Source: a virus
Lineage: Duplodnaviria > Heunggongvirae > Uroviricota > Caudoviricetes
Length of the DNA: 39,138 nt
Virus record (IMG/VR): IMGVR_UViG_2541047828_000002
Span: 1-39,138 of that record
Direction: 5' to 3' (one strand)
Below, piece by piece: positions 17,667 to 39,138 of this stretch. The notes beneath the pieces are model-generated. The model did no database searches. It worked only from the letters and a program-made list of their open reading frames with translations, and was not told where the DNA came from. The translations under genes and the position numbers were made by a program. Within the stretch, counting starts at the first letter, position 1, and the number at the start of each line of letters is the position of its first letter.

Positions 17667-17727
17667 AGGGGCGGGTCCAATCCCTGTGACCTGACGTCTT
17701 CCGGACTGCCCGCCCCATCGTTTTTTT
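17667..17727 (+). terminator. GC-rich hairpin plus T7 run between HNH and terminase genes (terminator and/or cos-region element)
   Basis: AGGGGCGGGTCC...GGACTGCCCGCCCC imperfect inverted repeat followed by TTTTTTT (17721-17727). Confidence 0.45.
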
Positions 17728-17766
17728 ATACCCGCGAAAAATGAAATTTAACCAGGAGTGCCGCAT

Positions 17767-19991: not shown

Positions 19992-20002
19992 CTGAGGTAA
20001 TT

Positions 20003-20185
20003 ATGATCATGCTGATTCTCGCGCCTCTGGTGGGCGTGCTGGGGGCGCTTTTGCTGGCGTATGGTGCCTGGCTGATTTATCCCCCGGCGGGGTTTGTTGT
20101 TGCCGGGGCGTTGTGCCTGTTCTGGTCGTGGCTGGTGGCGCGATATCTCGACCGTACACAGTCGTCTGCCGGCGGAGGTAAATAG
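20003..20185 (+). CDS. small two-helix membrane protein (60 aa)
   Basis: RBS GAGGT. Exactly fills the terminase-portal gap and its stop overlaps the portal GTG start. Hydrophobic. Confidence 0.4.
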
Positions 20186-22054: not shown

Positions 22055-22068
22055 TCAGGAGAAATACG

Positions 22069-23274
22069 ATGGCGGTTGATATTAAAGATGTCGAACAGGT
22101 CGCGCAGGAGCTGCAGCAGAAGTTTGACGACTTCAAAGCAAAGAACGACAAGCGCGTGGATGCGATTGAGCAGGAAAAAGGCAAGCTTGCCGGGCAGGTG
22201 GAAACCCTGAACGGGAAACTCAGCGAGCTGGAAAATCTCAAAAGCGACCTTGAAAAAGAGCTGCTTGAGCTGAAACGTCCGGCAGGTGGTGCGCAAAATA
22301 AACTGGCCACCGAGCATAAAGAAGCGTTTGTGGGCTTCCTGCGTAAAGGCCGTGAAGACGGTCTGCGCGATCTGGAGCGTAAGGCATTGCAGGTGGGCAC
22401 CGATGAAGACGGTGGCTACGCCGTGCCGGAAGCGCTGGATCGCAACATTCTCAACCTGCTGAAAGATGAAGTGGTGATGCGTCAGGAAGCCACGGTGATC
22501 ACCGTTGGCGGTTCCGACTACAAAAAACTGGTGAATCTGGGCGGCACGGCTTCCGGATGGGTGGGGGAAACGGATACGCGATCCCAGACTGCCACCTCCA
22601 GACTGGAGCTGATTGAACCTCTCATGGGGGAAATCTACGGCAACCCGCAGGCTACCCAGAAAATGCTGGACGATGCCTTCTTCAACGTGGAAGCATGGAT
22701 CAACAGCGAGCTGGCAACCGAATTTGCCGAACAGGAAGAAATTGCCTTTACCACCGGCGATGGTACCAAGAAGCCGAAAGGGTTCCTGGCGTATGAATCC
22801 ACGGATGAAACCGATAAGGTCCGGGCGTTCGGCAAACTTCAGCATATTGTATCCGGCGACGCGACTGCGGTGACTGCTGATGCCATTATCAAACTGATTT
22901 ACACGCTGCGAAAGGCTCACCGCACCGGCGCGAAGTTCATGATGAACAACAACAGCCTGTTTGCCATCCGTTTGCTGAAAGACACCGAGGGTAACTATCT
23001 GTGGCGTCCGGGGCTGGAACTGGGGCAGCCGTCCTCTCTGGCGGGTTACGGTATCGCTGAAAACGAACAGATGCCGGATATCGCCGCTGATGCGAAAGCC
23101 ATTGCATTTGGTAACTTCAAACGGGGTTACACCATCGTTGACCGTATCGGCACCCGCATTCTGCGTGACCCGTACACCAATAAACCGTTTGTCGGTTTTT
23201 ATACCACCAAGCGCACTGGCGGGATGCTGGTCGATTCGCAGGCCATCAAACTGCTGAAGATTGCAGCGGCGTAA
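22069..23274 (+). CDS. major capsid protein (HK97 fold) with N-terminal coiled-coil delta domain
   Basis: 401-aa product. N-terminal heptad-rich region (KFDDFKAKNDKRVDAIEQEKGKLAGQVETLNGKLSELENLKSDLEKELLELK). Follows the protease. Confidence 0.9.
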   Translation: MAVDIKDVEQVAQELQQKFDDFKAKNDKRVDAIEQEKGKLAGQVETLNGKLSELENLKSDLEKELLELKRPAGGAQNKLATEHKEAFVGFLRKGREDGLRDLERKALQVGTDEDGGYAVPEALDRNILNLLKDEVVMRQEATVITVGGSDYKKLVNLGGTASGWVGETDTRSQTATSRLELIEPLMGEIYGNPQATQKMLDDAFFNVEAWINSELATEFAEQEEIAFTTGDGTKKPKGFLAYESTDETDKVRAFGKLQHIVSGDATAVTADAIIKLIYTLRKAHRTGAKFMMNNNSLFAIRLLKDTEGNYLWRPGLELGQPSSLAGYGIAENEQMPDIAADAKAIAFGNFKRGYTIVDRIGTRILRDPYTNKPFVGFYTTKRTGGMLVDSQAIKLLKIAAA

Positions 23275-23281
23275 TCATTCA

Positions 23282-23301
23282 GGGGCGCGGAACCGCGCCC
23301 C
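23282..23301 (+). terminator. GC hairpin immediately after the major capsid gene
   Basis: GGGGCGCGG-AA-CCGCGCCCC stem 8 nt past the capsid stop. No T-run, so likely a stabiliser or partial terminator. Confidence 0.45.
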
Positions 23302-23323
23302 CTGTTCTGACGGATGAAGAATC

Positions 23324-23524
23324 ATGATCCTGAAACAAGATCTGAAATGGTCACCGGACGGTATGCGTGTTGAGGTCATTCGGGCCGGTGAGTATGACGA
23401 CGGGGCGCTGCCTGCCCGGGTGCAGGAGATTGCACTTCAGGCCGGGTTAGCAGAGCGCGGAACCAGTGCAAAAAGCAGTAAAGCGGCAAAAGAGAAAAAA
23501 GCCACGACCAGTAAAGAGGGCTGA
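23324..23524 (+). CDS. small hypothetical head-module protein (66 aa)
   Basis: ATG-initiated ORF between the capsid and connector genes with a Lys/Ser-rich C-terminus. No family recognised. Confidence 0.4.
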   Translation: MILKQDLKWSPDGMRVEVIRAGEYDDGALPARVQEIALQAGLAERGTSAKSSKAAKEKKATTSKEG

Positions 23525-23526
23525 GT

Positions 23527-23850
23527 ATGCTTCTGACAATGGAAGAGATTAAAGCCCAACTCCGGCTGGATGAGGATTTCGATACTGATGACCGTCATCT
23601 GCAACTGCTGGCCTGTGCGGCGCAAAAGCGGACGGAAACGTATCTGAACCGGAAGCTCTATGCACCGGATGAAAACATTCCGGACAGCGATCCGGACGGA
23701 CTACACCTGCCGGATGATATTCGTCTGGGGATGCTGATGCTTATCAGCCATTTTTACGAAAACCGCTCGTCGGTTACGGAAGTGGAGAAACTCGACATGC
23801 CGCAGAGTTTTGGCTGGCTTGTCAGCCCGTACAGGTACTTTCCGCAATGA
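23527..23850 (+). CDS. head-tail connector (gp6-like DNA packaging/connector protein)
   Basis: 107-aa protein in the canonical position after the capsid gene. MEEIKAQLRLDEDFDTDDRHLQLL is a typical N-terminus of this family. Confidence 0.65.
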   Translation: MLLTMEEIKAQLRLDEDFDTDDRHLQLLACAAQKRTETYLNRKLYAPDENIPDSDPDGLHLPDDIRLGMLMLISHFYENRSSVTEVEKLDMPQSFGWLVSPYRYFPQ

Positions 23851-24257
23851 AAATTCGTCAGGCGCAGACCAGCGCAACCTACATCCTGCCGGACCCCGGC
23901 GAACTGAATAAACGCGTCCTGATCCGCCAGCGGGTGGATATGCCCGCGGATAACTTTGGCGTGGAGCCTCAATACCCGGTTGCGTTCCGGGCATGGGCGA
24001 AGGTTATCCAGACCAGTGCCACCACCTGGCAGGAAACCGCGCAGACCGGAGACGCCATCACCCATTACATCACCATTCGCTACCGCCGGGGGATCACTGC
24101 TGATTATGAGGTGGTCTGTGGTGACAGTGTGTACCGCGTGAAACGTCAGCGTGATCTGAACGGAGCGCGGCGCTTTCTGCTGCTGGAGTGTACGGAGCTG
24201 GGCGAATTTACGCAGAGTCACGGAGGCAACAATGGCGACTTCCTTTTTGCACGTTGA
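23847..24257 (+). CDS. head-tail joining / head closure protein
   Basis: Position and size; overlapping starts typical of a morphogenesis operon. Confidence 0.6.
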   Translation: MKIRQAQTSATYILPDPGELNKRVLIRQRVDMPADNFGVEPQYPVAFRAWAKVIQTSATTWQETAQTGDAITHYITIRYRRGITADYEVVCGDSVYRVKRQRDLNGARRFLLLECTELGEFTQSHGGNNGDFLFAR

Positions 24258-24738
24258 TTTTCAGCAGCCCGCGGAGATGCGCTTTAACCGCGCCCGTGTC
24301 CGGCGGGCGTTTGTCACGATTGGTCAGCGTCATATGCGTGATGCCCGTCGGCTGGTGATGCGCCGTGCGCGGTCGGCACCGGGTGAAAACCCCGGTTATC
24401 AGACCGGACGCCTGGCTCGTTCGATTGGTTACATGGTACCCAGAGCCAGTAAACATCGCCCTGGTTTTATGGCACGTATAGCCCCTAACCAGCGTAATGG
24501 AGAGGGAAACCGCCGTATCACCGGTGATTTTTATCCGGCTTTTTTGTTCTATGGCGTGAGGCGAGGGGCAAAGCGTCGTCGCAGCCATCATCGTGGTGCA
24601 TCCGGTGGCAGCGGCTGGCGACTGGCTCCACGTAATAACTTCATGGTGGAAACTCTTGAAAAGAACCGCAGCTGGACACGCTATTTTCTGGCGCGGGAAT
24701 TGCGTAAATCACTGAAGCCGGAGCGACGACACAGATGA
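24232..24738 (+). CDS. HK97 gp10-like neck/tail component
   Basis: Position and basic composition; remembered family features only. Confidence 0.55.
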   Translation: MATSFLHVDFQQPAEMRFNRARVRRAFVTIGQRHMRDARRLVMRRARSAPGENPGYQTGRLARSIGYMVPRASKHRPGFMARIAPNQRNGEGNRRITGDFYPAFLFYGVRRGAKRRRSHHRGASGGSGWRLAPRNNFMVETLEKNRSWTRYFLARELRKSLKPERRHR

Positions 24739-25295
24739 AACTGACGCCTGTTATTGCTGCACTGCGTGCCCGCTGTCCGTATTTTGAAAACCGGGTTGCA
24801 GGCGCGGCCCAGTTCAAAAATCTGCCGGAGGTCGGAAAGCTGAAACTCCCGGCGGCATATGTTGTACCGGGTGATGATTCTCCGGGAGAAAACAAAAGCC
24901 AGACCGACTACTGGCAGGAGCTGAAAGAGGGTTTCTCCGTGGTTGTCATACTGAGTAACGGGCGTGATGAGCGCGGTCAGTTTGCCTCGTATGATGTGGT
25001 GGACGATGTCCGGCAGATGCTCTTTAAGGCTCTGCTGGGCTGGAACCCGGAGGCGTGCGGTAACCCGATTACCTATGACGGCGGCACGCTGCTGGATCTG
25101 AATCGTCATGAGCTGATTTATCAGTTCGATTTTTCGGTCATCAGCGAGCTGACTGAAGACGATACCCGCCAGCAGGATGATCTGAACAGTCTGGATGAAC
25201 TGCAAACGCTGGCGATTGATGTTGATTATCTCGAGCCCGGTAACGGGCCTGACGGCGATATCGAACATCACACCGAAATAACCCTTCCTTCCTGA
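24735..25295 (+). CDS. tail-associated protein (possible tail terminator/completion protein)
   Basis: Position upstream of the sheath gene. No specific motif recognised. Confidence 0.5.
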   Translation: MKLTPVIAALRARCPYFENRVAGAAQFKNLPEVGKLKLPAAYVVPGDDSPGENKSQTDYWQELKEGFSVVVILSNGRDERGQFASYDVVDDVRQMLFKALLGWNPEACGNPITYDGGTLLDLNRHELIYQFDFSVISELTEDDTRQQDDLNSLDELQTLAIDVDYLEPGNGPDGDIEHHTEITLPS

Positions 25296-25303
25296 GGATC
25301 CTC

Positions 25304-25474
25304 ATGTTTGTCAAACCTGTTAAAGGGCGGTCAGTTCCTGACCCTGCCCGCGGCGACCTTTTGCCCGCCGAAGGGCGAAATGTTGACGAGAACAACTACT
25401 GGCTGCGCCGTGAAGCAGCGGGTGATATCCGGCGCGTGAATAAAAAGGTGAATACCGATGACGATAAGCTTTAA
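25304..25474 (+). CDS. small ORF (56 aa) preceding the sheath gene
   Basis: ATG with GAGGA RBS. Below the 60-aa ORF-track cutoff. Overlaps the sheath start by 17 nt. Uncertain. Confidence 0.3.
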   Translation: MFVKPVKGRSVPDPARGDLLPAEGRNVDENNYWLRREAAGDIRRVNKKVNTDDDKL

Positions 25475-26954
25475 CACCATTCCGTCGAATACGCTGGTTC
25501 CGTTGTTTTATGCGGAAATGGATAACCAGGCGGCGAATACTGCACAGGACAGCGGAGCATCGCTGCTGATTGGTCATGCCAATAACGGTGCAGAGATTGT
25601 TGCCAACAGTCTGGTACTGATGCCGTCGGCAGACTATGCACGCCAGATTTGTGGTGCGGGAAGTCAGCTGGCGCGTATGGTCGAGGCTTATCGCCAGACT
25701 GACCCGTTTGGCGAGCTGTATGTGATTGCCGTTCCTGAATCCACAGGCGCGGCGGCAACGGTTACGCTGACGGTGACCGGGGCGGCAACCGAAACCGGCA
25801 CGGTGAATGTGTATGTGGGACGTACCCGCGTGCAGGCACCGGTGACTAACGGCGATAACGTCACGATGATTGCCAGCAGTATCCAGGATGCCATCAATGC
25901 CGTTCCGACCCTGCCGTTTACGGCTTCATCTTCGGCAGGCGTGGTCACACTGGCCGCGCGTCATAAGGGGCTTTGCGGGAATGAAATTCCTGTCAGCCTC
26001 AATTACTACGGCTTTGGTGGGGGCGAAGTGCTGCCAGCGGGCGTACAGATTGCCGTGGCGACGGGTACCGCCGGAACGGGTGCTCCGGTTCTCACCGGCG
26101 CGGTAGCTGCAATGGCGGATGAGCCGTTTGATTATATCGGCCTGCCGTTCAACGACACGGCCTCCGTTAACACGCTGGTGACCGAGATGAACGATACCAG
26201 CGGTCGCTGGAGCTATGCGCGTCAGCTGTATGGTCATGTGTATACGGCAAAGATCGGCACGCTGTCAGAACTGGTGACCGCAGGTGACCAGTTTAACCAG
26301 CAGCACATTACCCTGGCGGGGTACGAAAAAGACACCCAGACGCCTGCCGACGAGTTGGCGGCAAGCCGTACCGCCCGCGCAGCGGTGTTTATCCGCAACG
26401 ATCCGGCACGTCCCACGCAGACCGGTGAGCTGGTGGGTATGCTGCCTGCGCCGAAGGGGAAACGGTTCACGATGACCGAACAACAGACCCTGCTGTCTCA
26501 TGGCGTGGCAACGGCGTATGTCGAAAGCGGGGTACTGCGCATTCAGCGTGATGTCACCACGTACAGGAAAAACGCTTACGGGGTTGCGGATAACAGCTAC
26601 CTCGACAGCGAGACGCTGCATACCAGCGCGTATGTACTGCGCAAACTGAAATCCGTCATTATCAGTAAGTACGGGCGTCACAAGCTTGCCAGTGACGGTA
26701 CCCGCTTTGGTCCCGGTCAGGCGATTGTCACCCCGGCGGTGATCAAAGGGGAACTGCTGGCAACCTACCGTCAGCTCGAGCGTGCGGGGATCGTGGAAAA
26801 CTACGAACTGTTCAAGCAGTACCTGGTTGTGGAGCGTGATGCCAGCGATCCGAACCGCCTGAACACGCTGTTCCCGCCTGACTATGTTAACCAGTTGCGT
26901 GTCTTTGCCGTGGTTAACCAGTTCCGTCTTCAGTATTCAGAGGAGTCTGCATAA
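25458..26954 (+). CDS. contractile tail sheath protein (Mu gpL-like)
   Basis: 498-aa product immediately followed by a 118-aa tube gene; Mu-like order sheath, tube, chaperone, tape measure. Confidence 0.85.
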   Translation: MTISFNTIPSNTLVPLFYAEMDNQAANTAQDSGASLLIGHANNGAEIVANSLVLMPSADYARQICGAGSQLARMVEAYRQTDPFGELYVIAVPESTGAAATVTLTVTGAATETGTVNVYVGRTRVQAPVTNGDNVTMIASSIQDAINAVPTLPFTASSSAGVVTLAARHKGLCGNEIPVSLNYYGFGGGEVLPAGVQIAVATGTAGTGAPVLTGAVAAMADEPFDYIGLPFNDTASVNTLVTEMNDTSGRWSYARQLYGHVYTAKIGTLSELVTAGDQFNQQHITLAGYEKDTQTPADELAASRTARAAVFIRNDPARPTQTGELVGMLPAPKGKRFTMTEQQTLLSHGVATAYVESGVLRIQRDVTTYRKNAYGVADNSYLDSETLHTSAYVLRKLKSVIISKYGRHKLASDGTRFGPGQAIVTPAVIKGELLATYRQLERAGIVENYELFKQYLVVERDASDPNRLNTLFPPDYVNQLRVFAVVNQFRLQYSEESA

Positions 26955-27310
26955 TGGCTCGTATCGGGGGAACCTGTTATTTCAAAATTGACGGTCAGCA
27001 GCTATCGCTGACCGGTGGCATTGAGGTGCCCATGAACAGGACGGTCAATGATGACATCATCGGCCTGGACGGTTCAGTGGACCGCAAGGAAACTCACCGT
27101 GCGCCTTATGTCAAAGGGACCTTCAAGGTGCCGAAGAATTTTCCGGTGGGCAAAATCACCTCGTCTGATGAGATGACAATCACTGCCGAGCTGGCGAACG
27201 GTCAGGTCTATGTACTGTCGTCTGCCTGGCTGCACGGCGAAGCGAACCATAATGCCGAAGAAGGCACGGTTGATCTTGAGTTCCACGGTGAAGAAGGGGA
27301 TTACCAGTAA
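26954..27310 (+). CDS. tail tube protein (Mu gpM-like)
   Basis: 118-aa product; ATG overlaps the sheath stop. Confidence 0.8.
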   Translation: MARIGGTCYFKIDGQQLSLTGGIEVPMNRTVNDDIIGLDGSVDRKETHRAPYVKGTFKVPKNFPVGKITSSDEMTITAELANGQVYVLSSAWLHGEANHNAEEGTVDLEFHGEEGDYQ

Positions 27311-27579
27311 TGAAAGAGCTTGAGTTAAAGAAACCGATTACTGCTCATGGCGAGACACTCTCCGTACTGGAGTTTGATGAGCCCACCGGGAAGGATGTCC
27401 GCGAGCTGGGGTATCCCTACCAGATGAATCAGGATGAGTCCGTCAGACTTCTGGCGCATGTGGTGTCGAAATACATTGTGCGGCTGGCGAAAGTGCCGCA
27501 AAGCTCTGTCGACCAGATGTCTCCGGCAGACCTGAATGCAGCGGCGTGGCTTGTGGCCGGTTTTTTCCTCCAGGCCTGA
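27310..27579 (+). CDS. tail assembly chaperone (short form)
   Basis: 89-aa ORF directly upstream of the tape measure gene, ending just after a U UUU UUC slippery site. Confidence 0.65.
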   Translation: MKELELKKPITAHGETLSVLEFDEPTGKDVRELGYPYQMNQDESVRLLAHVVSKYIVRLAKVPQSSVDQMSPADLNAAAWLVAGFFLQA

Positions 27580-27728
27580 CGGCTGAATACCTCACTGATC
27601 GCTTCTTTGACTGCGCCAGCTACTGGCGCATTAATCCTTTCGAATTGCTGAATATGCCGATCAGTGAAATTCCCTTACTGGTCAGTCAGGCAAACAGGAT
27701 AGAGCAGGAGAAACGCACACATGGCTGA
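27310..27728 (+). CDS. tail assembly chaperone, predicted -1 frameshift fusion product
   Basis: Slippery heptamer T TTT TTC at 27561-27567. The -1 frame (ORF 27546..27728) continues to overlap the tape measure start. Confidence 0.5.
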
Positions 27729-29553
27729 ATTTGAGCTTAAGGCGTTGATCACCGGTGTCGACAGGCTTTCTCCCGCGCTGTCGAAAATGCAAAAGAAAAT
27801 CCGGGGATTTAAACGCCAGGCGGAAGAAGCGTCACAGGGTGGGCTGGCGCTTGGTGGCGGACTGGCAGCGGGTCTGACGCTTTCCCTGAAATCTTATGCC
27901 GATCAGGAAAACGCCGCCACCGGGCTGAAAGTCGCCATGATGGATGCGAACGGCGAGGTTGGAAAGAGCTTTCAGGACATCAATAAACTGGCTATTGGCC
28001 TGGGTAACCAGCTACCCGGTACAACGGCTGATTTCCAGAACATGATGCAGATGCTGGTGCGTCAGGGGATCCCGGCAGAAAACATTCTTGGCGGTGTGGG
28101 TAAAGCGACAGCTTATCTTGCGGTACAACTGAAAAAAACACCGGAAGCGGCTGCCGAGTTTGCCGCAAAGATGCAGGATGCTACCGGAACGGCGTCAGAA
28201 GACATGATGGGGCTGTTCGACACTATCCAGAAGGCGTTTTATCTGGGCGTTGACGATACCAACATGTTGTCCTTCTTCACTAAAACCAGCTCTGTTCTGA
28301 AGATGGTGAACAAGGACGGTCTTCAGGCTGCACAGAGCCTTGCCCCCATCAGCGTCATGATGGATCAGATGGGGATGAACGGGGAGTCGGCAGGTAACGC
28401 CCTGCGAAAAGTTATCCAGTCCGGATTAAGCGTTAAGAAAATCAGGGACGTCAATAAAATCATGGCCCGCCAGAAACTCGGGGTACAGCTCGATTTTACT
28501 GACGGCAAAGGGAGTTTTGGCGGTCTTGATAACATGTTCAGGCAACTGGCAAAGCTGCGACAACTGACCGACGTTAAACGAACTGGTGTACTTAAGGCAA
28601 TATTTGGTGATGATGCCGAAACCCTTCAGGTGGTCAATGCACTAATCGATAAAGGAAAGGATGGCTACGATCAGATCCAGCAGAAGATGAATAAACAGGC
28701 CAGCCTGAATAAACGTGTTCAGGCACAGCTTGGTACGCTGTCCAACCTGTGGGAGGCAATGACAGGGACCGCAACTAACGGCCTTGCGGCTATTGGCGGT
28801 GCATTTTCTGGTGACGCTAAAAATATCACGCAATGGCTGGGGGAGTTGGGGGAGAAATTCACGAAGTTTGCGGATGAAAATCCCCGGGTTATTCGCGGCG
28901 TCGTCGGGCTTGCTGCCGGTCTTGCGATTCTGAAACTGGGATTGATGGGCGTTGGCGGTGCCATCAGTATTGTCAGCAGGATCATGTCGATGACGCCGAT
29001 TGGCATGATTGCGACGGCGATAGCCCTGGCTGCGGGATTAATTATCACTAACTGGGATGTTGTCGGACCTTATTTTAAGAAACTCTGGGAAACCATTGGT
29101 CCTTATTTTGAGGCTGGCTGGGAACTCCTTAAGAAAGTTTTTGCCTGGTCGCCGCTGGGGATGGTGATCAATAACTGGGGGCCGGTTGTTAAGTGGTTTC
29201 AGGATATGTGGGACAAGCTGAAGCCAATTATTGAGTGGTTTACCGACAGTTCCGGTGACACGGTCGATGCCATTAACTCTGCGCAGTGGGGCGCGGGTGC
29301 TTATGATGCTTATGGGACGGGAATACCGGCGCGGGGATACACACCTTATCCGGCGGTGGATCTGGCTCAGTCAAACAACGCCTCCGATGCCACAGCCCCG
29401 AATCCCTTCATGATTAACAAAGCTTCTGCGCCAAAAGTTGATGGTGAGATCAAGGTCTCTTTTGTGAATTCGCCTCCGGGTATGCGGGTTATGGAAACAC
29501 GTTCTAGTGACATTGATATTAATCACGATGTTGGGTACACCAGATTTAGGTAA
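27721..29553 (+). CDS. tail tape measure protein
   Basis: 610-aa product with an Ala/Gly-rich helical N-terminal half and hydrophobic glycine-zipper segments (VVGLAAGLAILKLGLMGVGGAISIV). Downstream of the chaperone frameshift. Confidence 0.88.
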   Translation: MAEFELKALITGVDRLSPALSKMQKKIRGFKRQAEEASQGGLALGGGLAAGLTLSLKSYADQENAATGLKVAMMDANGEVGKSFQDINKLAIGLGNQLPGTTADFQNMMQMLVRQGIPAENILGGVGKATAYLAVQLKKTPEAAAEFAAKMQDATGTASEDMMGLFDTIQKAFYLGVDDTNMLSFFTKTSSVLKMVNKDGLQAAQSLAPISVMMDQMGMNGESAGNALRKVIQSGLSVKKIRDVNKIMARQKLGVQLDFTDGKGSFGGLDNMFRQLAKLRQLTDVKRTGVLKAIFGDDAETLQVVNALIDKGKDGYDQIQQKMNKQASLNKRVQAQLGTLSNLWEAMTGTATNGLAAIGGAFSGDAKNITQWLGELGEKFTKFADENPRVIRGVVGLAAGLAILKLGLMGVGGAISIVSRIMSMTPIGMIATAIALAAGLIITNWDVVGPYFKKLWETIGPYFEAGWELLKKVFAWSPLGMVINNWGPVVKWFQDMWDKLKPIIEWFTDSSGDTVDAINSAQWGAGAYDAYGTGIPARGYTPYPAVDLAQSNNASDATAPNPFMINKASAPKVDGEIKVSFVNSPPGMRVMETRSSDIDINHDVGYTRFR

Positions 29554-29560
29554 AGACGAA

Positions 29561-29582
29561 CAGGGAGGGCCGCCCCTCCCTG
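29561..29582. terminator. bidirectional hairpin between tape measure and a convergent accessory gene
   Basis: CAGGGAGGG-CCGC-CCCTCCCTG, a perfect 9-bp stem between the convergent stops at 29553 and 29586. Confidence 0.6.
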
Positions 29583-29585
29583 AAC

Positions 29586-30032
29586 TTACTGTGCGAACAC
29601 GCAATTTCGGCCTGATGGGGAGCCGACAATTCTGGACATTTTTTCGCAAATAACAGTTACCTGTTCTCCTTTTTTAAGAGCAGCAGCTGTTGATTTTTCA
29701 GAGTCTTGCATCTCCATTCTTGCTGGCATGAATTCATTTTCAGTTCTGAATTTAATAATTATAGAGTCAGTAAAGTCCTTATCAATGGATTGTACGATAC
29801 CTCTAACGGCGATTAATTTACCTTTTAACTGTTCATCGGTAGCGACTTCATTTTCTTCATACTCTTTAAACAGCTGTCGAGCAGTAGTGTTGTAGATTTC
29901 TTTTTGCGGTGCCGCAGCTTCCGTATCGGATGAGTATGAAGAATTAGAGCCTTTATCGTTATTGCCTGCAAAATATCCAATAATCACCAACCCGATGAAA
30001 ATATATAAAATCCATTTTAATAATTTCTTCAT
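29586..30032 (-). CDS. exported/membrane-anchored OB-fold protein (tRNA_anti-like family)
   Basis: AT-rich 148-aa ORF on the opposite strand. N-terminal hydrophobic anchor MKKLLKWILYIFIGLVIIGYFAG. Then ARQLFKEYEENEVATDEQLKGKLIAVRGIVQSIDKD...KKGEQVTVICEKM, which matches the remembered signature of the tRNA_anti-like OB-fold family. Confidence 0.6.
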   Translation of the reverse strand: MKKLLKWILYIFIGLVIIGYFAGNNDKGSNSSYSSDTEAAAPQKEIYNTTARQLFKEYEENEVATDEQLKGKLIAVRGIVQSIDKDFTDSIIIKFRTENEFMPARMEMQDSEKSTAAALKKGEQVTVICEKMSRIVGSPSGRNCVFAQ

Positions 30033-30142
30033 GTTATCACCTTAATGCTAATAATTTATATAGTTACAAATGGTAATGGCTACCACTACAAATTATGGCA
30101 TTACCAGTAAATATTACTACTGATAATAAATATGGGACTTAT

Positions 30143-31471
30143 ATGACGTGGAAAGACAGACTTCAGGATGCGTCATTTCGCGGCGTGCCGTTTAAGGTTG
30201 AAGAAGAAAGTGCGGGAACCGGTCGTCGTGTGGAAACACATGAATACCCGAACCGCGACAAACCCTATACCGAAGACCTGGGGAAAATCACTTTCCGCCC
30301 GTCCATCACGGCTTATGTGGTGGGAGATGACTGCTTTGACCAGCGTGATCTCCTGATTGAAGCGCTGAATAAACCAGGTCCCGGCACGCTTGTCCACCCG
30401 ACATACGGTGAGGTGAAAGTCTGTGTTGACGGGGAAGTCCGGGTCAGCACATCGAAGAGTGAAGGGCGTATTGTCCGCTTTGACCTGAAGTTTGTCGAAG
30501 CGGGAGAACTCTCTTACCCCACATCAGGCGTGGCGACGGCGCAGACGCTGATGTCATCCTGTTCTGCACTGGATGACTGCATCAGTGACAGCTTCAGCGG
30601 TTTCAGTATCGATGGCGTGGCGGATTTTGTGCAGAACGACGTTATCGGTAATGCCAGCACAATGCTTGGGTATGTTTCTGATGCGATGAAAGTGGTGGAT
30701 TCTGCTGTATCGGATGCCGCCAGGCTGTTGCAGGGGGATATCTCGGTACTTCTGCCGCCGCCATCGTCAGGAAAAAATTTCGTTGAGCAGGTGCAGAAAA
30801 TGTGGCGTACCGGTAAACGCCTTTATGGTAACGCCAGCGACCTGGTCACCATGATCAAAATGCTTTCTGGTGTCAGCCTCGGCAGCGATTTGCAACCGCG
30901 CGGCGTCTGGAAAACGGACAGTAAAACCACCGCCACAGCGACGCAGCAGCGTAACGTGGTTGCCAGCACTCTTCGTACGACTGCAATCAGCGAAGCAGCG
31001 TATGCCGTCACACGATTGCCTGCGCCAACAACTCCCGCGGTGATGCAGAATGCCGCAGTGGGGCAGTCAACAACACCCGCGCAGAGCACCGGCTGGCCTT
31101 CCGTCACGCATCCGGCACTGAACAATGCACCTGCGGTGAAAAACACGGTTGACCTGCCAACGTGGGAAGAACTGACCGACATTCGCGACACACTGAATAC
31201 GGCAATTGATAAGGAGTTGTCCCGTACAACCAGTGATGCGCTGTTTCTGGCGCTGCGCCGGGTGAAAGCAGATCTGAATGCGGATATCAACACGCGCCTT
31301 GAACAGTCTGCGCGGATCATTCAGCGCACGCCGGATGAGGTTTTACCCGCGCTGGTGCTGGCGGCGACCTGGTTTGATAACGCGGCGCGTGACGTGGACC
31401 TTATCCGGCGTAATGCTATTACGCATCCCGGCTTTGTGCCGGTGATCCCTCTGAAGGTGCCAGTGCAATGA
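30143..31471 (+). CDS. DNA circularization protein (Mu N / gp43-like)
   Basis: MTWKDRLQDASFRGVPFKVEEESAGTGRRVETHEYPNRD is the characteristic N-terminal domain. Internal Met chosen; the ORF track start at 30095 lies in the AT-rich promoter region of the neighbouring gene. Confidence 0.75.
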   Translation: MTWKDRLQDASFRGVPFKVEEESAGTGRRVETHEYPNRDKPYTEDLGKITFRPSITAYVVGDDCFDQRDLLIEALNKPGPGTLVHPTYGEVKVCVDGEVRVSTSKSEGRIVRFDLKFVEAGELSYPTSGVATAQTLMSSCSALDDCISDSFSGFSIDGVADFVQNDVIGNASTMLGYVSDAMKVVDSAVSDAARLLQGDISVLLPPPSSGKNFVEQVQKMWRTGKRLYGNASDLVTMIKMLSGVSLGSDLQPRGVWKTDSKTTATATQQRNVVASTLRTTAISEAAYAVTRLPAPTTPAVMQNAAVGQSTTPAQSTGWPSVTHPALNNAPAVKNTVDLPTWEELTDIRDTLNTAIDKELSRTTSDALFLALRRVKADLNADINTRLEQSARIIQRTPDEVLPALVLAATWFDNAARDVDLIRRNAITHPGFVPVIPLKVPVQ

Positions 31472-32547
31472 ACGACAATGTCACGCTACGGGTAAATGGC
31501 CGGGAGTGGAATGGCTGGACATCGGTGCGCATCGGTGCCGGTATTGAACGGCTGGCACGGGATTTCAGTATGGAGATCACCCGCCAGTGGCCGGGAGATG
31601 AGGGTATCACCACGCTTCAGCCGCGTATTAAAAACGGTTCAAAAGTGGAAGTTCTGATTGGTGATGAGCTGGTGATCACCGGCTGGGTGGAGGCGACGCC
31701 CGTTCGTTACGATGCCCGTTCGGTCAGCACCGGTATTGCCGGACGCAGTCTGACCGCTGACCTGATTGACTGTGCAGCCGAACCGACACAGTTTAACGGA
31801 CGATCGCTGGTACAGATTGCGCAGGCGCTTGCTGCGCCTTTCGGCATTGAGGTGGTGAACAACGGTGCGCCGTCGGGTGTTATTCCGGATGTCCAGCCTG
31901 ATCACGGCGAAACGGTGATCGAGGTGATCAACAAAATACTCGGTCAGCAGCAGGCACTGGCTTACGACGACCCGCACGGCAGGCTGGTGATTGGCGGTAT
32001 TGGCTCAACGCGGGCACATACCGCGCTGGTACTTGGGGAAAACATCCTTTCCTGTGATACGGAGAAGAGTATCCGGGAGCGGTTTTCAGTTTACCAGGTG
32101 GCGGGGCAGCGTGCCGGAAATGACGATGATTTCGGTGAGGCCACCACCACCGCGCTGCGGGCCCGCACAGAAGACGCATTTATTGCCCGTTACCGTCCGA
32201 TGTATATCAGGCAGACAGGGCAGGCTACGGGGGCAGGCTGTATTGCCCGTGCGGACTTTGAAGCCCGGCAACGGGCGGCGCGGACGGATGAAACCACCTA
32301 TGTGGTGCAGGGCTGGCGACAGGGTAACGGTACGCTGTGGCAGCCCAACCAGCGGGTGATTGTCTTCGATCCGGTCTGTGGTTTCGACAATACCGAACTG
32401 CTTGTCTCGGAAGTCACGTTTACTCAGGACCAGAACGGCACCCTGACGGAAATCCGTGTCGGCCCACCTGATGCTTATCTGCCTGAACCCGAAGCCCCCG
32501 GCGCGCGGAAAAAGAAAAAAGCCAGAGTACAGGAGGACCCGTTCTGA
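31468..32547 (+). CDS. baseplate hub protein (Mu P / gp44-like)
   Basis: 359-aa product; position after the N-like gene in a Mu-type tail module. Confidence 0.72.
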   Translation: MNDNVTLRVNGREWNGWTSVRIGAGIERLARDFSMEITRQWPGDEGITTLQPRIKNGSKVEVLIGDELVITGWVEATPVRYDARSVSTGIAGRSLTADLIDCAAEPTQFNGRSLVQIAQALAAPFGIEVVNNGAPSGVIPDVQPDHGETVIEVINKILGQQQALAYDDPHGRLVIGGIGSTRAHTALVLGENILSCDTEKSIRERFSVYQVAGQRAGNDDDFGEATTTALRARTEDAFIARYRPMYIRQTGQATGAGCIARADFEARQRAARTDETTYVVQGWRQGNGTLWQPNQRVIVFDPVCGFDNTELLVSEVTFTQDQNGTLTEIRVGPPDAYLPEPEAPGARKKKKARVQEDPF

Positions 32548-33095
32548 TGAGGACGATTGAAGCCATGCAGCGACAACTCCTCGGCCTGATTGGGCGGGCC
32601 GTGGTGAAAAGCATCAGTGCCGCCACGAAATGTCAGACCGTGGATGTGTCCCTGATTGCCGGTGAACCCAAAGCCGGGGTTGAACATCTTGAACCCTACG
32701 GTTTTACCGCAAGGGCAAACAGCGGTGCGGAAGCGGTGGTGTTGTTTCCGGATGGCGATCGTTCTCATGCGGTGGTTGTTACGGTGTCGGACCGGCGCTA
32801 CCGCCTGAAAGGGCTGCAGACGGGTGAGGTGGCTGTCTATGACGATCAGGGGCAGTCCGTGACGCTGACCCGGGAGGGGATCGTGGTGGACGGTGCAGGT
32901 AAAACGATCACGTTTCGCAATGCACCTGAAGCACGTTTTGAAATGGACCTTGAAGTGACCGGACAGGTGAAAGACCTGTGCGACTCCGGCGGCACCACCA
33001 TGTCAGCGATGCGGCTTGCCTATAACGGGCATCGTCACAGAGAGAACGGTCAGGGCAGTAACACCGACAAACCTGATAAAGCGATGGAGGCATGA
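32547..33095 (+). CDS. baseplate spike/assembly protein V-like (Mu gp45-like)
   Basis: 182-aa product; position and size; overlapping start. Confidence 0.68.
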   Translation: MRTIEAMQRQLLGLIGRAVVKSISAATKCQTVDVSLIAGEPKAGVEHLEPYGFTARANSGAEAVVLFPDGDRSHAVVVTVSDRRYRLKGLQTGEVAVYDDQGQSVTLTREGIVVDGAGKTITFRNAPEARFEMDLEVTGQVKDLCDSGGTTMSAMRLAYNGHRHRENGQGSNTDKPDKAMEA

Positions 33096-33520
33096 TGGAA
33101 CTGTGGCTGACGGTGAACGGTAAACGCACCTGCGCCAGCGCACCGCTGGATCCGCTGACCCGCGCCGTGGTGATTTCCCTGTTTACCTGGCGGCGGGCGG
33201 AGCCTGATGACAATGCCGACGTCCCGATGGGATGGTGGGGGGATACCTGGCCTACGGTACAGAATGACCGTTACGGCTCCCGACTGTGGCTGCTTCAGCG
33301 CAGCAAACTGACCAATCAACTGGTGCAGACGGTAAGGGGGTATATCCGCGAATGCCTGCAATGGATGATTGATGACGGCGTGGTGTCCCGCATTGATCTG
33401 GATATCCGCCGCACCGGGATTAATGAACTGGGTAACAGTATCACTCTCTGGCGTCGTGACGGACCGGTAATGATTTCTTTTGATGATCTGTGGAGTGCGA
33501 TAACGCATGGCGGACAGTGA
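33092..33520 (+). CDS. baseplate protein (Mu gp46-like)
   Basis: 142-aa product; position and size. Confidence 0.65.
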   Translation: MMELWLTVNGKRTCASAPLDPLTRAVVISLFTWRRAEPDDNADVPMGWWGDTWPTVQNDRYGSRLWLLQRSKLTNQLVQTVRGYIRECLQWMIDDGVVSRIDLDIRRTGINELGNSITLWRRDGPVMISFDDLWSAITHGGQ

Positions 33521-34565
33521 ATTTCAGCGCCCGACGCTGGCAGAAAATATCAGTATGCTCCGTAACGATTTATTCGCCAGGCTGGACGTCAGCGACACGC
33601 TCCGGCGCATGGATGAAGACGTGCGGGCAAAGGTGTATGCGGCGGCGCTGCATACGGTTTACGGGTACATCGATTATCTGGCAATGAACATGCTGCCTGA
33701 CCTGTGCGATGAGTTCTGGCTGGCGCGACATGCTGCGATGAAACGGTGTCCGCGCAAGGGAGCCACGGTTGCCAGCGGGTATATGCGCTGGGAAGGTGTC
33801 AGCGATGGCCTGAAGGTGACTGCCGGGAGTGTTATTCAGCGCGATGACCTGGTGCAGTACACGACAACTGACGATGCAATCAGCTCCGGTGGTGTCCTGC
33901 GCGTGCCGATCGCCTGCTCAAGTGCAGGTGCGGTCGGTAACGCTGACGACGGTACGGCATTAATCCTGGTCACGCCGGTGAATGGTCTGCCGTCTTCCGG
34001 TGTGGCTGACACCCTGACAGGCGGATTTGATACTGAAGAGCTGGAAACTTGGCGCGCCCGCGTCATTGAGCGGTATTACTGGACGCCGCAGGGCGGGGCT
34101 GACGGGGACTATGTCGTCTGGGCTAAAGAAGTGCCTGGCATTACCCGCGCATGGACATACCGACACTGGATGGGAACGGGGACTGTCGGTGTGATGATTG
34201 CCAGCAGTGACCTGATTAATCCCATTCCGGAAGAATCAACGGAAACGGCGGCAAGACAACATATCGGGCCACTGGCCCCGGTGGCAGGCTCTGATTTGTA
34301 TGTGTTCAGGCCGGTGGCACATACGGTGGATTTTCATATCCGTGTGACGCCGGACACACCGGAAATACGGGCTGCCATCACCGCGGAGTTGCGTTCGTTC
34401 CTGCTGCGTGATGGTTATCCGCAGGGAGAACTGAAGGTGTCACGTATTAGTGAAGCGATTTCCGGTGCGAACGGGGAATACAGCCATCAGTTGCTTGCAC
34501 CGGCGGACAATATCACCATTGCGAAAAATGAACTGGCGGTTCTGGGGGCGATTTCATGGACGTGA
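33507..34565 (+). CDS. baseplate J-like protein (Mu gp47-like)
   Basis: 352-aa product; position and size. Confidence 0.78.
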
Positions 34566-35140
34566 CAAACGATGATTACATCCGTCTGTTGTCAGCACTG
34601 TTGCCGCCCGGTCCGGCGTGGTCAGCCAGCGATCCGGCGATTGCCGGTGCGGCACCGTCATTAACCCGCGTTCATCAGCGTGCGGATGCCCTGATGCGGG
34701 AGCTGGATCCGCGCACCACCACCGAACTGATAAATCGCTGGGAGCGTCTGTGCGGCCTGCCGGATGAATGTATTCCCGCAGGGACACAGACCCTTCGCCA
34801 GCGTCAGCAACGACTGGATGCGAAGGTTAACCTGGCGGGCGGCATCAATGAGGATTTTTACCTTGCACAGCTTGCTGCCCTGGGCAGACCAGACGCTACC
34901 ATCACGCGATACGACAAAAGCACGTTCACCTGCTCATCTGCCTGTACTGACGCGGTGAATGCGCCGGAATGGCGGTATTACTGGCGGGTCAACATGCCAG
35001 CCGCCACCAACACCACCTGGATGACATGTGGCGATCCCTGTGATTCCGCACTGCGTATCTGGGGGGACACCGTTGTCGAGTGCGTGCTTAACAAACTCTG
35101 CCCGTCGCATACCTACGTAATTTTTAAATATCCGGAGTAA
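34556..35140 (+). CDS. tail protein (Mu gp48-like, DUF2313-type)
   Basis: 194-aa product between the baseplate J and tail fibre genes. Confidence 0.6.
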
Positions 35141-35143
35141 TTC

Positions 35144-36070
35144 ATGCATCGTATAGACACGAAAACCGCGCAGAAGGATAAGTTCGGCGCGGGTAAGAAC
35201 GGTTTTACCCGTGGTAACCCCCAGACCGGCACACCTGCCACCGATCTGGATGATGACTACTTTGACATGTTGCAGGAGGAACTTTGCAGTGTTGTGGAGG
35301 CATCCGGTGCCAGTCTGGAGAAGGGGCGGCACGATCAGTTGCTTACCGCACTTCGCGCGCTGCTGTTAAGCCGCAAGAATCCGTTTGGCGATATCAAATC
35401 GGACGGCACGGTGAAAACGGCTCTCGAAAACCTTGGTTTGGGAGATACAAGCGGATACGTGGGACGCTGGGTGAATACCCGGGTTTTCACGTCATCAGGT
35501 ACGTACACCCCGACGCCAGGAACAAAACGGATCAGGGTCACAATAACGGGCGGCGGTGGCGGAGGGGGCGGCTGCAAGGCTATATCCAATAATGAAACGT
35601 TTTTCGGTGCTGGCGGTGGGGCCGGTGGAACAATAATTTCAATAATGACCCCGACACAGAATAGTTATCCAGTCACTATCGGCGCAGGTGGGGCCGGTGG
35701 TGTTAGTGCGACGTACGGCATCAATGGCGGTAATAGCTTATTCGCATCGTTAATTGCTCCTGGTGGCGCAGGCGGCGGAAAGTCAGGAGTCACAAACACA
35801 AACGGTGGTAACGGAGGTGTGCCGAGTACTGGCGGTATCAACATCATTGGTGGAAATGGAGGCGACGGTCAGTCCGGAAATATCGGCGTCAGCGGTGAAG
35901 GCGGAACATCGTACTGGGGGGGCGGTGGACGCGCAGGCGCTGGCGGTGGTGTTAGTGGTAAGGCATATGGTTCAGGTGGCGGTGGCGCATACGATGCCGG
36001 CTATAGCGGAACCAGTATGACAGGCGGGAAAGGTGCTGCTGGGATTTGTATTATCGAGGAGTTTGCATAA
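35144..36070 (+). CDS. tail fibre protein with glycine-rich repeat domain
   Basis: 308-aa product with a conserved-looking N-terminus ([10 protein letters not shown]...) and then long GGxGG runs. Followed by a tail fibre assembly gene. Confidence 0.75.
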
Positions 36071-36486
36071 TGAATGCGTCATATGCAGTTATTGAAAATG
36101 GGATGGTTGTGAATGTCATTGTCTGGGATGGCGAGGCTGAATTCACAGTGCCGGATAATCAGCAGCTCATTGATATTTCTGATATCAGTGAGCATCCCGG
36201 AATCGGCTGGGGGTATTCAGACGGGGTATTTACTGCGCCGCTCCCTCCGGAACGTTCTCATGATGAACTGGTAGCTGACGCTGAACAGAAAAAACAGTCG
36301 CTGATAGACGCAGCAATGGCCAATATCAGCGTGATTCAGTTAAAGCTGCAGGCCGGGCGCAAACTGACGCAAGAAGAAACTACCAGACTTAACGTTGTGC
36401 TGGATTATATCGAGGCTGTGACGGCAACAGATACCAGCATTGCACCGGATATTGAGTGGCCGGATGAACCGTGCTTCGCTGAATAA
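36070..36486 (+). CDS. tail fibre assembly protein (Tfa-like chaperone)
   Basis: C-terminal ...TTRLNVVLDYIEAVTATDTSIAPDIEWPDEP matches the typical Tfa C-terminal signature. ATG overlaps the fibre stop (TAATG). Confidence 0.7.
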   Translation: MNASYAVIENGMVVNVIVWDGEAEFTVPDNQQLIDISDISEHPGIGWGYSDGVFTAPLPPERSHDELVADAEQKKQSLIDAAMANISVIQLKLQAGRKLTQEETTRLNVVLDYIEAVTATDTSIAPDIEWPDEPCFAE

Positions 36487-36692
36487 AATCTGTTGAGGAG
36501 AAGCGGTTTAATTGTAACTCAATTCTTTTTGTGTAATAAAAGTAGGATAAAACTGTGACACATAAAGCCTCGCAATGGTTTGCAAGGCTTTGAACGCTTC
36601 TATATTGAGGATGTGACGCGGTTTCGTTTATTTCCATTCTATATATTGATGTCGATTTTTATGAATATAGAGCATACGGATAAACTGCAGTG

Positions 36693-36729
36693 TGATTAGA
36701 GTCAAAGTAATAGTTGTTGACTCTAATCA
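36693..36729. repeat. 13-bp perfect inverted repeat (TGATTAGAGTCAA / TTGACTCTAATCA) with 11-bp spacer
   Basis: Lies 18 nt downstream (minus sense) of the acyltransferase stop. Possible terminator or protein-binding site. Confidence 0.45.
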
Positions 36730-36746
36730 TTGCAAAGTGACTTTAC

Positions 36747-37814
36747 TTAATGAAATTTATCTCGGATGAATTGTTGCGATGGCTTTTCAATGAATATATA
36801 TGACATATAGCTAATTGCCATTAATGTAAGCATGAATAAAATGAATACCTTGGGGCTGTAAAAAAGATCGCGTCCATAGCCAATCTTGTCAGCTAAATAA
36901 ACAACAATGATTTGCAAAGGAAAATGTAAAAGATAAGATGAATAACTGATATCACCCAACCATTCAATTTTCTTCCCAAAATCGTTTCGTATTGCGCTAA
37001 TTGATACAAGGAAAAAGATTATGGAGGTAAATCCGAATAAGATAATTGAGAATATATCTGCTACTTGCAGGGTAAAGATAACTCCCCATGAGATCAATAG
37101 AAAAACACAAGCAAAAATAAAAAATAATTTTGCGCTAATATTTTTTATGACCGCAATCGTAATTTTATAGGTCAGACCACCAATAAAGAAAGAGAATGCG
37201 CCGATCATTATGGGATTGTTAATTTTGAAAAAGTAGTACGACAATGCAACTATTAAAATTGATATGAATGTTGTTTTTGATGTGAACTTGCATAATATAA
37301 AAAATATCATGTACATAAGTACTTCAATCGACACGGACCATGTCGGGGCGTTGAAGGACCAACCTCGCTCAAATCCCCATGATTGAATCATCAATAAATT
37401 CAGAATGGCATGGTAAATGTCATTCATAGGATAAACAAAAAAATAATTATGACTTTTAAAGAAAATAATTTGTAATATTGCCACGACAGCAAATGTAAAT
37501 ATATAAAGTGGATATAATCTACTGACACGGTTAACTATAAAAGTTTTTGCTGAGGTTTTATTGCTGTGTATATTGTCAGCGTATAGATAAAAAAATATGA
37601 ATCCAGAAATCATAAAAAACAATTCGACAGCATATAAACCGTAATGATAAAAAACGGAAAAAAATTCATAAAAAGGTTGGCGGTTTATGATTATGTCAGA
37701 TGCAGCATTCTTTTTCATAAAAAAATGTTGCCAATGCCATAACACAACGGAAAGTGCGGCAAATCCTCTCAGAACATCCAGGGTATATATTCTCTTCCCA
37801 AAAAAATTCGTCAC
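36747..37814 (-). CDS. acyltransferase family 3 integral membrane protein (O-antigen acetyltransferase-like)
   Basis: 355-aa, very AT-rich ORF with about 10 hydrophobic segments. N-terminus LDVLRGFAALSVVLWHW is the characteristic acyltransferase_3 start. GTG start with RBS AAGAGG. Confidence 0.8.
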   Translation of the reverse strand: MTNFFGKRIYTLDVLRGFAALSVVLWHWQHFFMKKNAASDIIINRQPFYEFFSVFYHYGLYAVELFFMISGFIFFYLYADNIHSNKTSAKTFIVNRVSRLYPLYIFTFAVVAILQIIFFKSHNYFFVYPMNDIYHAILNLLMIQSWGFERGWSFNAPTWSVSIEVLMYMIFFILCKFTSKTTFISILIVALSYYFFKINNPIMIGAFSFFIGGLTYKITIAVIKNISAKLFFIFACVFLLISWGVIFTLQVADIFSIILFGFTSIIFFLVSISAIRNDFGKKIEWLGDISYSSYLLHFPLQIIVVYLADKIGYGRDLFYSPKVFILFMLTLMAISYMSYIFIEKPSQQFIRDKFH

Positions 37815-38364
37815 AACGAACCTCTTTTAATAAAGTCAAGTGATAATGAAAGATAAATATTGTAAACGAAAAAACACTGGACTGGAACATATATCTCTGC
37901 TTGTAATTTACCCAAGATAATTTTACTAACGCAGTCATAATTCGTTCATGTATACCAGATGAAAGTACATGTTCTATGAAATAGGGTTTTGCCTGGAGTT
38001 TGAAGGTTTTTAACGATTATACCTGTTTAATCGACTCCCCATGTTTTTTGACATTATCCACCGCACACGATACTGGATGCCAGGTAAACTGATTTGCTGG
38101 CATAAAGTCACTGAGAATTTTTTACCAACAATATCTTGCCACATCTTTTCCCGCACAGTTTCGGCAATAGAATCAGCGGGCAGCGGTCATCAATATTCAC
38201 CAGACATTGATCTGCCGCACTATCTGACCGGTGTCCTGCTGAGAATACTAATTTCTTTTTTTGCAAGTGCTGTCCAATCATGATTGGGGGGGGGCGGCGG
38301 AGTTGAAACCGCAGGTACGTTGTATGCAATAACGTGCTGCGGTTTAATCTTATCAATTGAATAC

Positions 38365-39138
<774 letters not shown>

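Follow-up and report, generated by a model that had tools for sequence, protein, structure and literature searches.

The 39,138 nt sequence analysed here (IMG/VR record IMGVR_UViG_2541047828_000002, positions 1 to 39,138; hereafter the window) begins with the end of proA, followed by the tRNA gene thrW, at which a prophage is integrated, and then runs through a complete temperate-phage genome. At its right end the tail fibre and fibre assembly chaperone genes are directly followed, in convergent orientation, by an intact gene predicted to encode a membrane O-acyltransferase of the acyltransferase-3 (AT3) type, and this gene is the subject of our analysis. The features needed to follow the argument are listed below with their strand.

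1-1254: end of the proA gene
1369-1444, plus strand: thrW, tRNA-Thr(CGT), forming the prophage attL (ARAGORN)
1459-2622, minus strand: tyrosine integrase gene
35144-36070, plus strand: tail fibre gene, a single continuous open reading frame of 308 codons (equivalent to L001 10745-11671 in Escherichia coli DS26-1)
35446-36070, plus strand: glycine-rich C-terminal tail fibre tip (Pfam Gly_rich_2), first part of a cassette delimited by homology break points
36046-36486, plus strand: tail fibre assembly chaperone gene, middle part of the cassette (Pfam Caudo_TAP, 9.5e-21; PHROG 188); the equivalent of the RefSeq start is 36070
36533-36591, no strand assigned: terminator-like hairpin of about 60 bp between the convergent chaperone and acyltransferase genes (RNA fold -20 kcal/mol, z -4.2)
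36693-36729, minus strand: perfect 13 bp inverted repeat (hairpin), 18 nt past the acyltransferase stop codon (RNA fold -20 kcal/mol, z -5.0)
36747-37814, minus strand: predicted AT3-only membrane O-acyltransferase gene, 355 codons, GTG start, intact
37719-37725, minus strand: T7 homopolymer at codons 30-32 of the acyltransferase gene, T6 and hence a frameshift in DS26-1 (alignment; three of 50 records are 1 nt short)
37821-37826, minus strand: Shine-Dalgarno sequence AAGAGG, 6 nt from the GTG (read in the sequence)
37815-38337, minus strand: AT-rich non-coding leader, the presumed promoter region, co-inherited with the acyltransferase gene (95.5% identity to the Escherichia coli IAI1 copy up to 38337)

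The guanine-cytosine (GC) content falls from about 55% to about 32% past the fibre assembly gene, which ends at 36486; the acyltransferase gene has 31.8% GC, as compared with 54.8% in the tail region and 50.3% in the whole window. An initial annotation of this DNA had placed an AT-rich minus-strand gene of 355 codons within 36490-37900, and the exact reading frame proves to be the 1068 nt listed above. The GTG start at 37814 has AAGAGG upstream (37826-37821), and the IAI1, AH02 and Citrobacter alleles begin with the same GTG; the leader contains one TATAAT, at about 38014-38019. The 550 bp upstream region has a single GATC (38209), which argues against Dam/OxyR switching of the gtr type, and such phase variation was rejected. 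An 82-codon minus-strand reading frame (36389-36637) was set aside, as it has no family match and overlaps the chaperone gene.

Genomic slot and protein family of the acyltransferase

The late region of the prophage (approximately 17300-35445) is about 97% identical to the Shigella serotype-converting phages SfII, SfI, SfIV and SfV and to the E. coli phage vB_EcoM-689R6. The attR core, which repeats 25 nt from the 3' end of thrW, is found in DS26-1 (L001 17082-17106), about 2.3 kb past the point at which the window ends and about 3.7 kb beyond the acyltransferase gene, with a GIY-YIG gene, an AraC-type regulator and an insertion sequence (IS) remnant between the two. The gene order in SfII is fibre chaperone (plus strand), acyltransferase (minus strand), IS, gtrII-gtrB-gtrA, attP and int, and the acyltransferase, SfII_25, is OacD, responsible for 6-O-acetylation of GlcNAc in the Shigella flexneri O-antigen (PMC9558356); in Sf6 the order is tailspike (plus strand), oac (minus strand), int and attP. 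The window acyltransferase gene occupies this classical O-antigen-modification slot, which is taken by oacD and gtrABC in SfII and by oac in Sf6. No genes of the gtrA, gtrB or gtrC type lie between the fibre genes and the end of the window, where the acyltransferase gene and a gene for the anti-phage defence protein PD-T4-3 are present instead. The earlier description, in which the gene is cargo at the tail-fibre/att end of a phage of the serotype-converting type that integrates at thrW, is thus borne out by the attL, the backbone and the SfII-like slot. Its companion statement, that SfV-type phages carry gtr genes and Sf6-type phages oac, holds for Sf6, but SfV-type phages are not restricted to gtr, since SfII has oacD in the same slot.

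The hairpin at 36533-36591 recurs at the other end of the cargo region: it is 88% identical to L001 16925-16984, just before attR of DS26-1 (blastn), and 89% identical to the terminator that the SfII annotation places between gtrA and int, next to attP (L004 10714-10759). This recurrence suggests that the cargo entered the phage genome at a point between the fibre terminator and attP. The two copies flank the cargo region like a duplicated insertion boundary.

Membership of the AT3 family, as given in the initial annotation, is confirmed by a hidden Markov model search with Pfam PF01757 (Acyl_transf_3), which matches with an E value of 7.5e-25 and 88.1 bits (cut-off 31) over residues 10-334 and profile positions 2-320 of 326. 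PHROG 3333, 'O-acetyltransferase', matches with an E value of 8e-41, and the 647-position profile of PHROG 6705 gives a weak match (3e-8) that does not reach beyond the AT3 part. With its AT3 domain the protein is complete at residue 355, and it contains no SGNH or other extra domain. When the window protein is aligned with 18 homologues of 39-96% identity, R16...H27 (R-X10-H, first transmembrane helix), R96-V-S-R99 (RXXR, third transmembrane helix) and N155-x-P157-x-W159-S160...E164 are invariant across all 19. In OafB the R-X10-H and RXXR residues have as counterparts R14/H25 and R71/R74, all of them essential and situated along the wall of a proposed acetyl-CoA cavity (PMC9833829, where the motifs are also defined). 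An AlphaFold2 model (predicted local distance difference test score, pLDDT, 86; predicted template modelling score, pTM, 0.86) has about 11 long helices and fits the fold expected of transmembrane acyltransferases, which is polytopic with about 10 transmembrane helices. It resembles HGSNAT and GWT1, eukaryotic proteins of solved structure that differ in their sequence (11-14% identity), their extra domains and their lysosomal or endoplasmic reticulum acceptors. No match to the acyltransferase was found in the PDB, by sequence or by Foldseek, nor in NCBIfam or PADLOC, and BFVD gave one unnamed AT3-SGNH-like match.

The full 1068 nt are kept in 47 of 50 records of the gene, the other three being shorter by 1 nt, and the ratio of nonsynonymous to synonymous substitution rates (dN/dS) among the window, IAI1, AH02 and Citrobacter alleles, out to 85% identity, is 0.15-0.20. 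The intact reading frame, the kept motifs and this ratio indicate that the window copy is an intact gene under purifying selection. An AT-rich, horizontally acquired gene might also be inert or decaying cargo, silenced and heading for loss, but the low dN/dS, the preservation of every catalytic motif and of gene length, and the conservation of the gene in three phage backbones make this very improbable.

Damaged copies do occur elsewhere. The closest database copy, in DS26-1 (99.9% identical), has the T6 tract noted above, as a consequence of which RefSeq gives a 396-residue 'acyltransferase family protein' (WP_233408252.1; L001 12348-13538) whose first approximately 70 residues are out of frame and in which the R-X10-H helix is missing. 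The P0004 cluster (66 sequences) bears two frameshifts, and one genome retains just 344 nt of the gene. We read these frameshifts and 1 nt differences as sporadic decay or mutation, or as homopolymer sequencing error. Slipped-strand phase variation at the T7 tract was considered and rejected: one of the three records that differ by 1 nt is a duplicate within a single assembly, and T-runs occur throughout the gene because 14% of its codons specify Phe. The N-terminally extended forms of 396 (RefSeq, DS26-1) and 381 (P0003) residues were also rejected, as artefacts that arise from a frameshift or from an upstream reading frame in the same phase; all 19 homologues begin 8-10 residues ahead of an RIYxLD motif.

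A mosaic cassette and its homologues

The similarity to SfII and SfI takes in about the first 100 codons of the fibre gene and ends at 35445, and similarity to a segment of E. coli IAI1 begins at 35432 and continues to 38337 with 95.5% identity. The IAI1 segment belongs to another myovirus prophage, which adjoins yfhH and differs in its baseplate, and the block common to the two comprises the glycine-rich fibre tip, the chaperone, the acyltransferase and its 520 bp upstream region. This block together with the GIY-YIG gene recurs in an SfV-like phage whose integrase is of the dusA type and which encodes a type II restriction-modification system. That phage has also been assembled as a 43.7 kb circle in E. 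coli AH02 and CT01, so it can excise. The AH02 circle is recorded as 'plasmid unnamed3' (NZ_CP081704.1, 43,680 bp), and the same phage is also in the chromosome; its integrase is associated with a dusA fragment, and the restriction-modification pair lies between the GIY-YIG gene and int. Citrobacter freundii shares the acyltransferase alone (85% identity), at the fibre end of an SfV-like prophage. Carriers of the acyltransferase thus have at least three integration contexts (thrW, dusA and beside yfhH), and the gene is part of a 2.9 kb mosaic cassette found in at least three phage backbones.

The fibre tip and chaperone are more widespread than the acyltransferase, being present in 293 genomes, including phage-plasmids of about 90 kb, as compared with 49 genomes for the acyltransferase, which accompanies the fibre tip in about one of six cases. 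The tip and chaperone module (87-93% identity) is also seen on plasmid records of approximately 80-120 kb (E. coli matches H332-H353). These are presumably phage-plasmids, which would mean that tips are exchanged between integrated and extrachromosomal phages. In several genomes RefSeq divides the tail fibre region into a 'StfP' pseudogene and a separate 'glycine-rich domain-containing protein'.

A protein search returned 2032 matches to the acyltransferase. The closest match in a phage record is unannotated and 38% identical, and no near-identical DNA was found in phage records. Closer enterobacterial homologues sit in prophage tail-fibre or tailspike modules: those of Klebsiella aerogenes (47%) and Serratia marcescens (49%) are on the opposite strand between genes for a Gp53-like adaptor and a large fibre or beta-helix tailspike. 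The S. plymuthica homologue adjoins a P2-like remnant, and that of Kluyvera is a lone insertion. More distant homologues in Pseudomonas savastanoi (44%) and Xanthomonas albilineans (43%) lie inside ABC-transporter O-antigen clusters that encode Wzm, Wzt with a Wzt_C domain, a WbdD-like methyltransferase, an 831-residue protein with two glycosyltransferase family 4 (GT4) domains, and rml and GDP-sugar functions; the X. albilineans cluster is situated between etfA and metB. In a crude tblastn screen of the best 80 species-level homologue loci, 21 have at least one O-polysaccharide marker within 10 kb, with Wzm at 10, a WbdA-like double-GT4 protein at 16 and RmlA at 16.

These clusters recall P. 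aeruginosa, where deletion of PA5458 shifts or alters the bands of the common polysaccharide antigen (a D-rhamnan) (PMC3560663). PA5458 is a putative membrane acetyltransferase in a homopolymer O-polysaccharide locus with Wzm/Wzt, a WbdD-like methyltransferase and GT4 proteins, the same context as that of the P. savastanoi and X. albilineans homologues. It differs from the window acyltransferase in being chromosomal rather than phage-borne, and no P. aeruginosa locus is among the best 80, so that orthology to PA5458 is not established.

Host association and proposed function

The distribution of the gene was determined in 5426 complete E. coli genomes. The acyltransferase gene was concatenated to an O-type marker and carriers gaining a second match were counted, such that hosts were typed by marker queries and not by individual serotyping; controls for the backbone and fibre tip used inclusion-exclusion on genome counts. 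An O8-type wzt is present in 35 of the 48 carrier chromosomes and an O9-family wzt in seven. The mannosyltransferase gene common to O8, O9 and O9a, wbdC, is found in 44 of the 48 as compared with 14.9% of non-carriers (odds ratio 63, Fisher p 1e-31), a contrast tempered by the use of raw genome counts, uncorrected for clonal relatedness or phylogeny. Direct inspection confirmed an O8 cluster in IAI1 and an O9 cluster in strain a15. The SfV-like baseplate J gene is present in 1399 genomes, about 104 of which (7.4%) are wbdC-positive, whereas about 227 of the 293 genomes with the fibre tip and chaperone (77%) are; the host bias therefore belongs to the cassette rather than to the SfV-like phage family, and the fibre tip alone shows it. 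The carriers are drawn from many animal hosts and countries, and identical alleles are present in both O8 and O9 hosts. Together with the several integration contexts, this means that a single clone cannot explain the O8/O9 pattern.

Such a pattern could also arise if the enzyme acted on some other surface glycan that co-occurs with O8/O9, either a group 1 or group 4 K-antigen (capsule or K-lipopolysaccharide, encoded at galF-gnd) or colanic acid. E. coli group 1 capsules are limited to a few O groups, O8 and O9 among them, and a second polysaccharide cluster is present at galF-gnd in each of IAI1, a15 and EJN001. The K. aerogenes homologues adjoin genes for beta-helix, depolymerase-like tailspikes, and prophage acetyltransferases are known to track K loci in Klebsiella (PMC13123978). 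However, the galF-gnd clusters differ among the three E. coli strains, whose common feature is the wbd cluster, a15 retains its colanic-acid genes, and the Pseudomonas and Xanthomonas homologues are in O-antigen and not capsule clusters. We therefore consider a K-antigen or colanic acid target unlikely.

The interpretation we prefer, at a little better than even confidence, is that the acyltransferase brings about lysogenic conversion by adding O-acyl groups to the O-polysaccharide, with the O8/O9 mannan as the probable target; its donor, acceptor, acylation site and exclusion phenotype are those that we infer. The polymannose O8/O9 O-antigen of the Wzm/Wzt ABC-transporter pathway is the most probable acceptor because the cassette tracks wbd strains, because the informative distant homologues sit in Wzm/Wzt loci for homopolymeric (mannan- or rhamnan-type) O-polysaccharides, and because the gene fills the O-antigen-modification slot of its phage relatives. 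A plausible scenario, modelled by analogy on OafB, Oac and HGSNAT, is that a stand-alone AT3 enzyme would be made from the prophage and reside in the inner membrane. Cytoplasmic acetyl-CoA, or another short acyl-CoA, would enter a transmembrane cavity lined by R16, R96 and R99, with the thioester presented to H27 near the periplasmic face, and the acyl group would be passed to a hydroxyl of the undecaprenyl-linked O-polysaccharide after its export and before its ligation to lipid A-core. The outcome would be a changed O-epitope and reduced adsorption by phages that use the same surface, including carriers of the co-travelling fibre tip. Exclusion of phages sharing that tip is a plausible pay-off of the gene, and it fits with the adjacent PD-T4-3 gene and with the restriction-modification system of the dusA variant.

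Several known enzymes provide context for this proposal. Sf6 Oac (OacA), which confers immunity to Sf6 superinfection (PMC9558356), is by analogy the functional model that we adopt. It, too, is AT3-only; it acetylates O-antigen, and its gene lies on the opposite strand, flanked by a receptor-binding tail gene and int/attP. The differences are that Sf6, a podovirus, has an endorhamnosidase tailspike and that the substrate of Oac is rhamnose. OacD of SfII is also AT3-only and of about 350 residues, and its gene is in the identical slot, directly after the tail fibre assembly gene and on the opposite strand, in a 97% identical backbone; SfII differs in having gtrABC and in that its hosts have an O-antigen of the Wzy type, whereas most hosts here have Wzm/Wzt polymannose. 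OafA and OafB of Salmonella, and OatA, share the AT3 domain, the R-X10-H and RXXR motifs and the proposed transmembrane presentation of acetyl-CoA. They differ in having a fused SGNH domain, and the window enzyme, lacking one, would have to finish the transfer alone, like Oac and OacB.

There are, however, a number of findings that count against O8/O9 mannan acylation. The window protein has no detectable similarity to OacD (BLASTP E 0.09, and no match to the clade profile), and as the two share a slot this is best described as a non-orthologous replacement within the AT3 superfamily. Homology to Sf6 Oac is remote (19 bits to the clade profile, as against 65 bits for the uncharacterised acyltransferase of TL-2011b), and the proposed comparison with known O-antigen acetylases therefore held as to slot and failed as to sequence. 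No characterised protein is present among the 2032 matches, nor is any member of the clade characterised, such that the check for homologues acting on substrates other than lipopolysaccharide was passed in part: the 43-44% identical homologues in Wzm/Wzt clusters and the O8/O9 carriers support O-antigen modification, and no close homologue has been studied biochemically. The remaining 59 of the 80 homologue loci have no O-polysaccharide marker within 10 kb, and those of the P. fluorescens group lie among housekeeping genes and are uninformative. A consensus scan found no convincing promoter upstream of the gene. Genomes with the fibre tip and no acyltransferase are wbdC-positive in 182 of 244 cases (75%), and with so equal a bias the association of the acyltransferase does not prove its substrate; it could be hitch-hiking on the host range of the fibre tip. 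Four of the 48 carriers lack wbdC, one of which, CFSAN064035, has the same phage end and an ordinary Wzx/Wzy rhamnose/galactofuranose cluster. Finally, EJN001 and EBJ001 keep the acyltransferase although an IS1 event removed wzm and wzt; wbdA-B-C are retained and the remainder of the cluster has been replaced with a Klebsiella-like capsule locus. In EJN001 (L022 24696-30473) IS1 cuts the O9-type cluster after wbdA, with loss of wbdD, wzt, wzm and the man genes, and the capsule locus includes rfbBADC.

Some of these observations would also suit acylation of a conserved envelope glycan (as with WecH and the enterobacterial common antigen, or OpgC and periplasmic glucans), of the lipopolysaccharide core or of peptidoglycan, with the O8/O9 bias reflecting nothing other than fibre-tip host range. 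The equal host bias of the tip alone, the four carriers that are not polymannose strains and the uninformative context of many homologues are compatible with this, and AT3 proteins are functionally diverse (PMC9558356). Yet no homologue was seen in an enterobacterial common antigen, periplasmic glucan or peptidoglycan gene context, approximately one quarter of the distant homologues are in O-polysaccharide clusters, and the gene is in the slot that SfII and Sf6 devote to O-antigen modification. E. coli, moreover, already encodes WecH and OpgC. A conserved envelope acceptor thus seems to us improbable, and O-polysaccharide acylation remains the preferred explanation.

A more far-reaching form of that explanation can be offered tentatively, and we would put it behind the general proposal. 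The enzyme may O-acetylate the O8/O9/O9a mannan, or the shared adaptor made by WbdB and WbdC, after export by Wzm/Wzt, giving unrecognised O8/O9 subtypes. An E. coli O-antigen that depends on an ABC transporter would then, for the first time, be known to undergo serotype conversion by a phage-encoded enzyme, and the 2.9 kb cassette would unite a receptor binder, with a tip targeting the same strains, and a receptor modifier, swapping as a unit between unrelated backbones. The literature searched contains no report of O-acetylated O8/O9 mannan, a further point on the negative side, which leaves two possibilities, a new prediction or a modification that does not exist. Nor did it contain any report on this gene, including experimental O-acetylation or a change in serotype or phage sensitivity.

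Accompanying cargo and biological significance

Four other features of the window are as follows.

38365-39138, minus strand: GIY-YIG nuclease-type anti-phage defence gene PD-T4-3, 257 codons, LEM-3-like (PADLOC E 3.3e-140 over the full length; Pfam LEM-3_GIY-YIG)
13029-14360, minus strand: KAP-family P-loop NTPase gene, 443 codons (Pfam 9e-71; PADLOC candidate defence family PDC-S20, E 4.5e-177)
5018-5614, minus strand: 198-codon open reading frame in a 32% GC island of the early region, with no Pfam or PADLOC match, a probable moron
29586-30032, minus strand: OB-fold (tRNA_anti-like) gene, 148 codons, on the opposite strand between the tape-measure and DNA-circularisation genes

The PD-T4-3 and acyltransferase genes share a strand, with PD-T4-3 immediately upstream, and the two usually travel together. 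The island that contains the KAP NTPase gene has 31% GC and separates antiterminator Q from the lysis genes. A tRNA_anti-like gene is also found near the S. plymuthica acyltransferase homologue (L015 12428-12901).

Phage-borne O-antigen acetylases set serotypes and vaccine epitopes in Shigella and Salmonella, and AT3 acylases as a kind are well known. To our knowledge no equivalent phage-encoded O-antigen modification has been described for E. coli O8/O9, and what is new here is an uncharacterised phage-encoded AT3 enzyme, a putative surface-polysaccharide acylase, with an apparently specific link to O8/O9 strains. These O groups are common in commensal, livestock and multidrug-resistant lineages and provide the textbook model of ABC-transporter-dependent O-antigen synthesis. 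If the mannan is acetylated, hidden antigenic heterogeneity within O8/O9 would be explained, recognition by lectins and antibodies and the host range of therapeutic phages would be affected, and the enzyme would be a tractable model for an AT3-only protein working on a polymer whose synthesis is finished in the cytoplasm. IAI1, a sequenced reference strain, carries both the acyltransferase and an O8 cluster, and the hypothesis is directly testable there. The cassette of fibre tip, chaperone and putative modifier also illustrates how host-range and exclusion functions may be exchanged jointly among phages.

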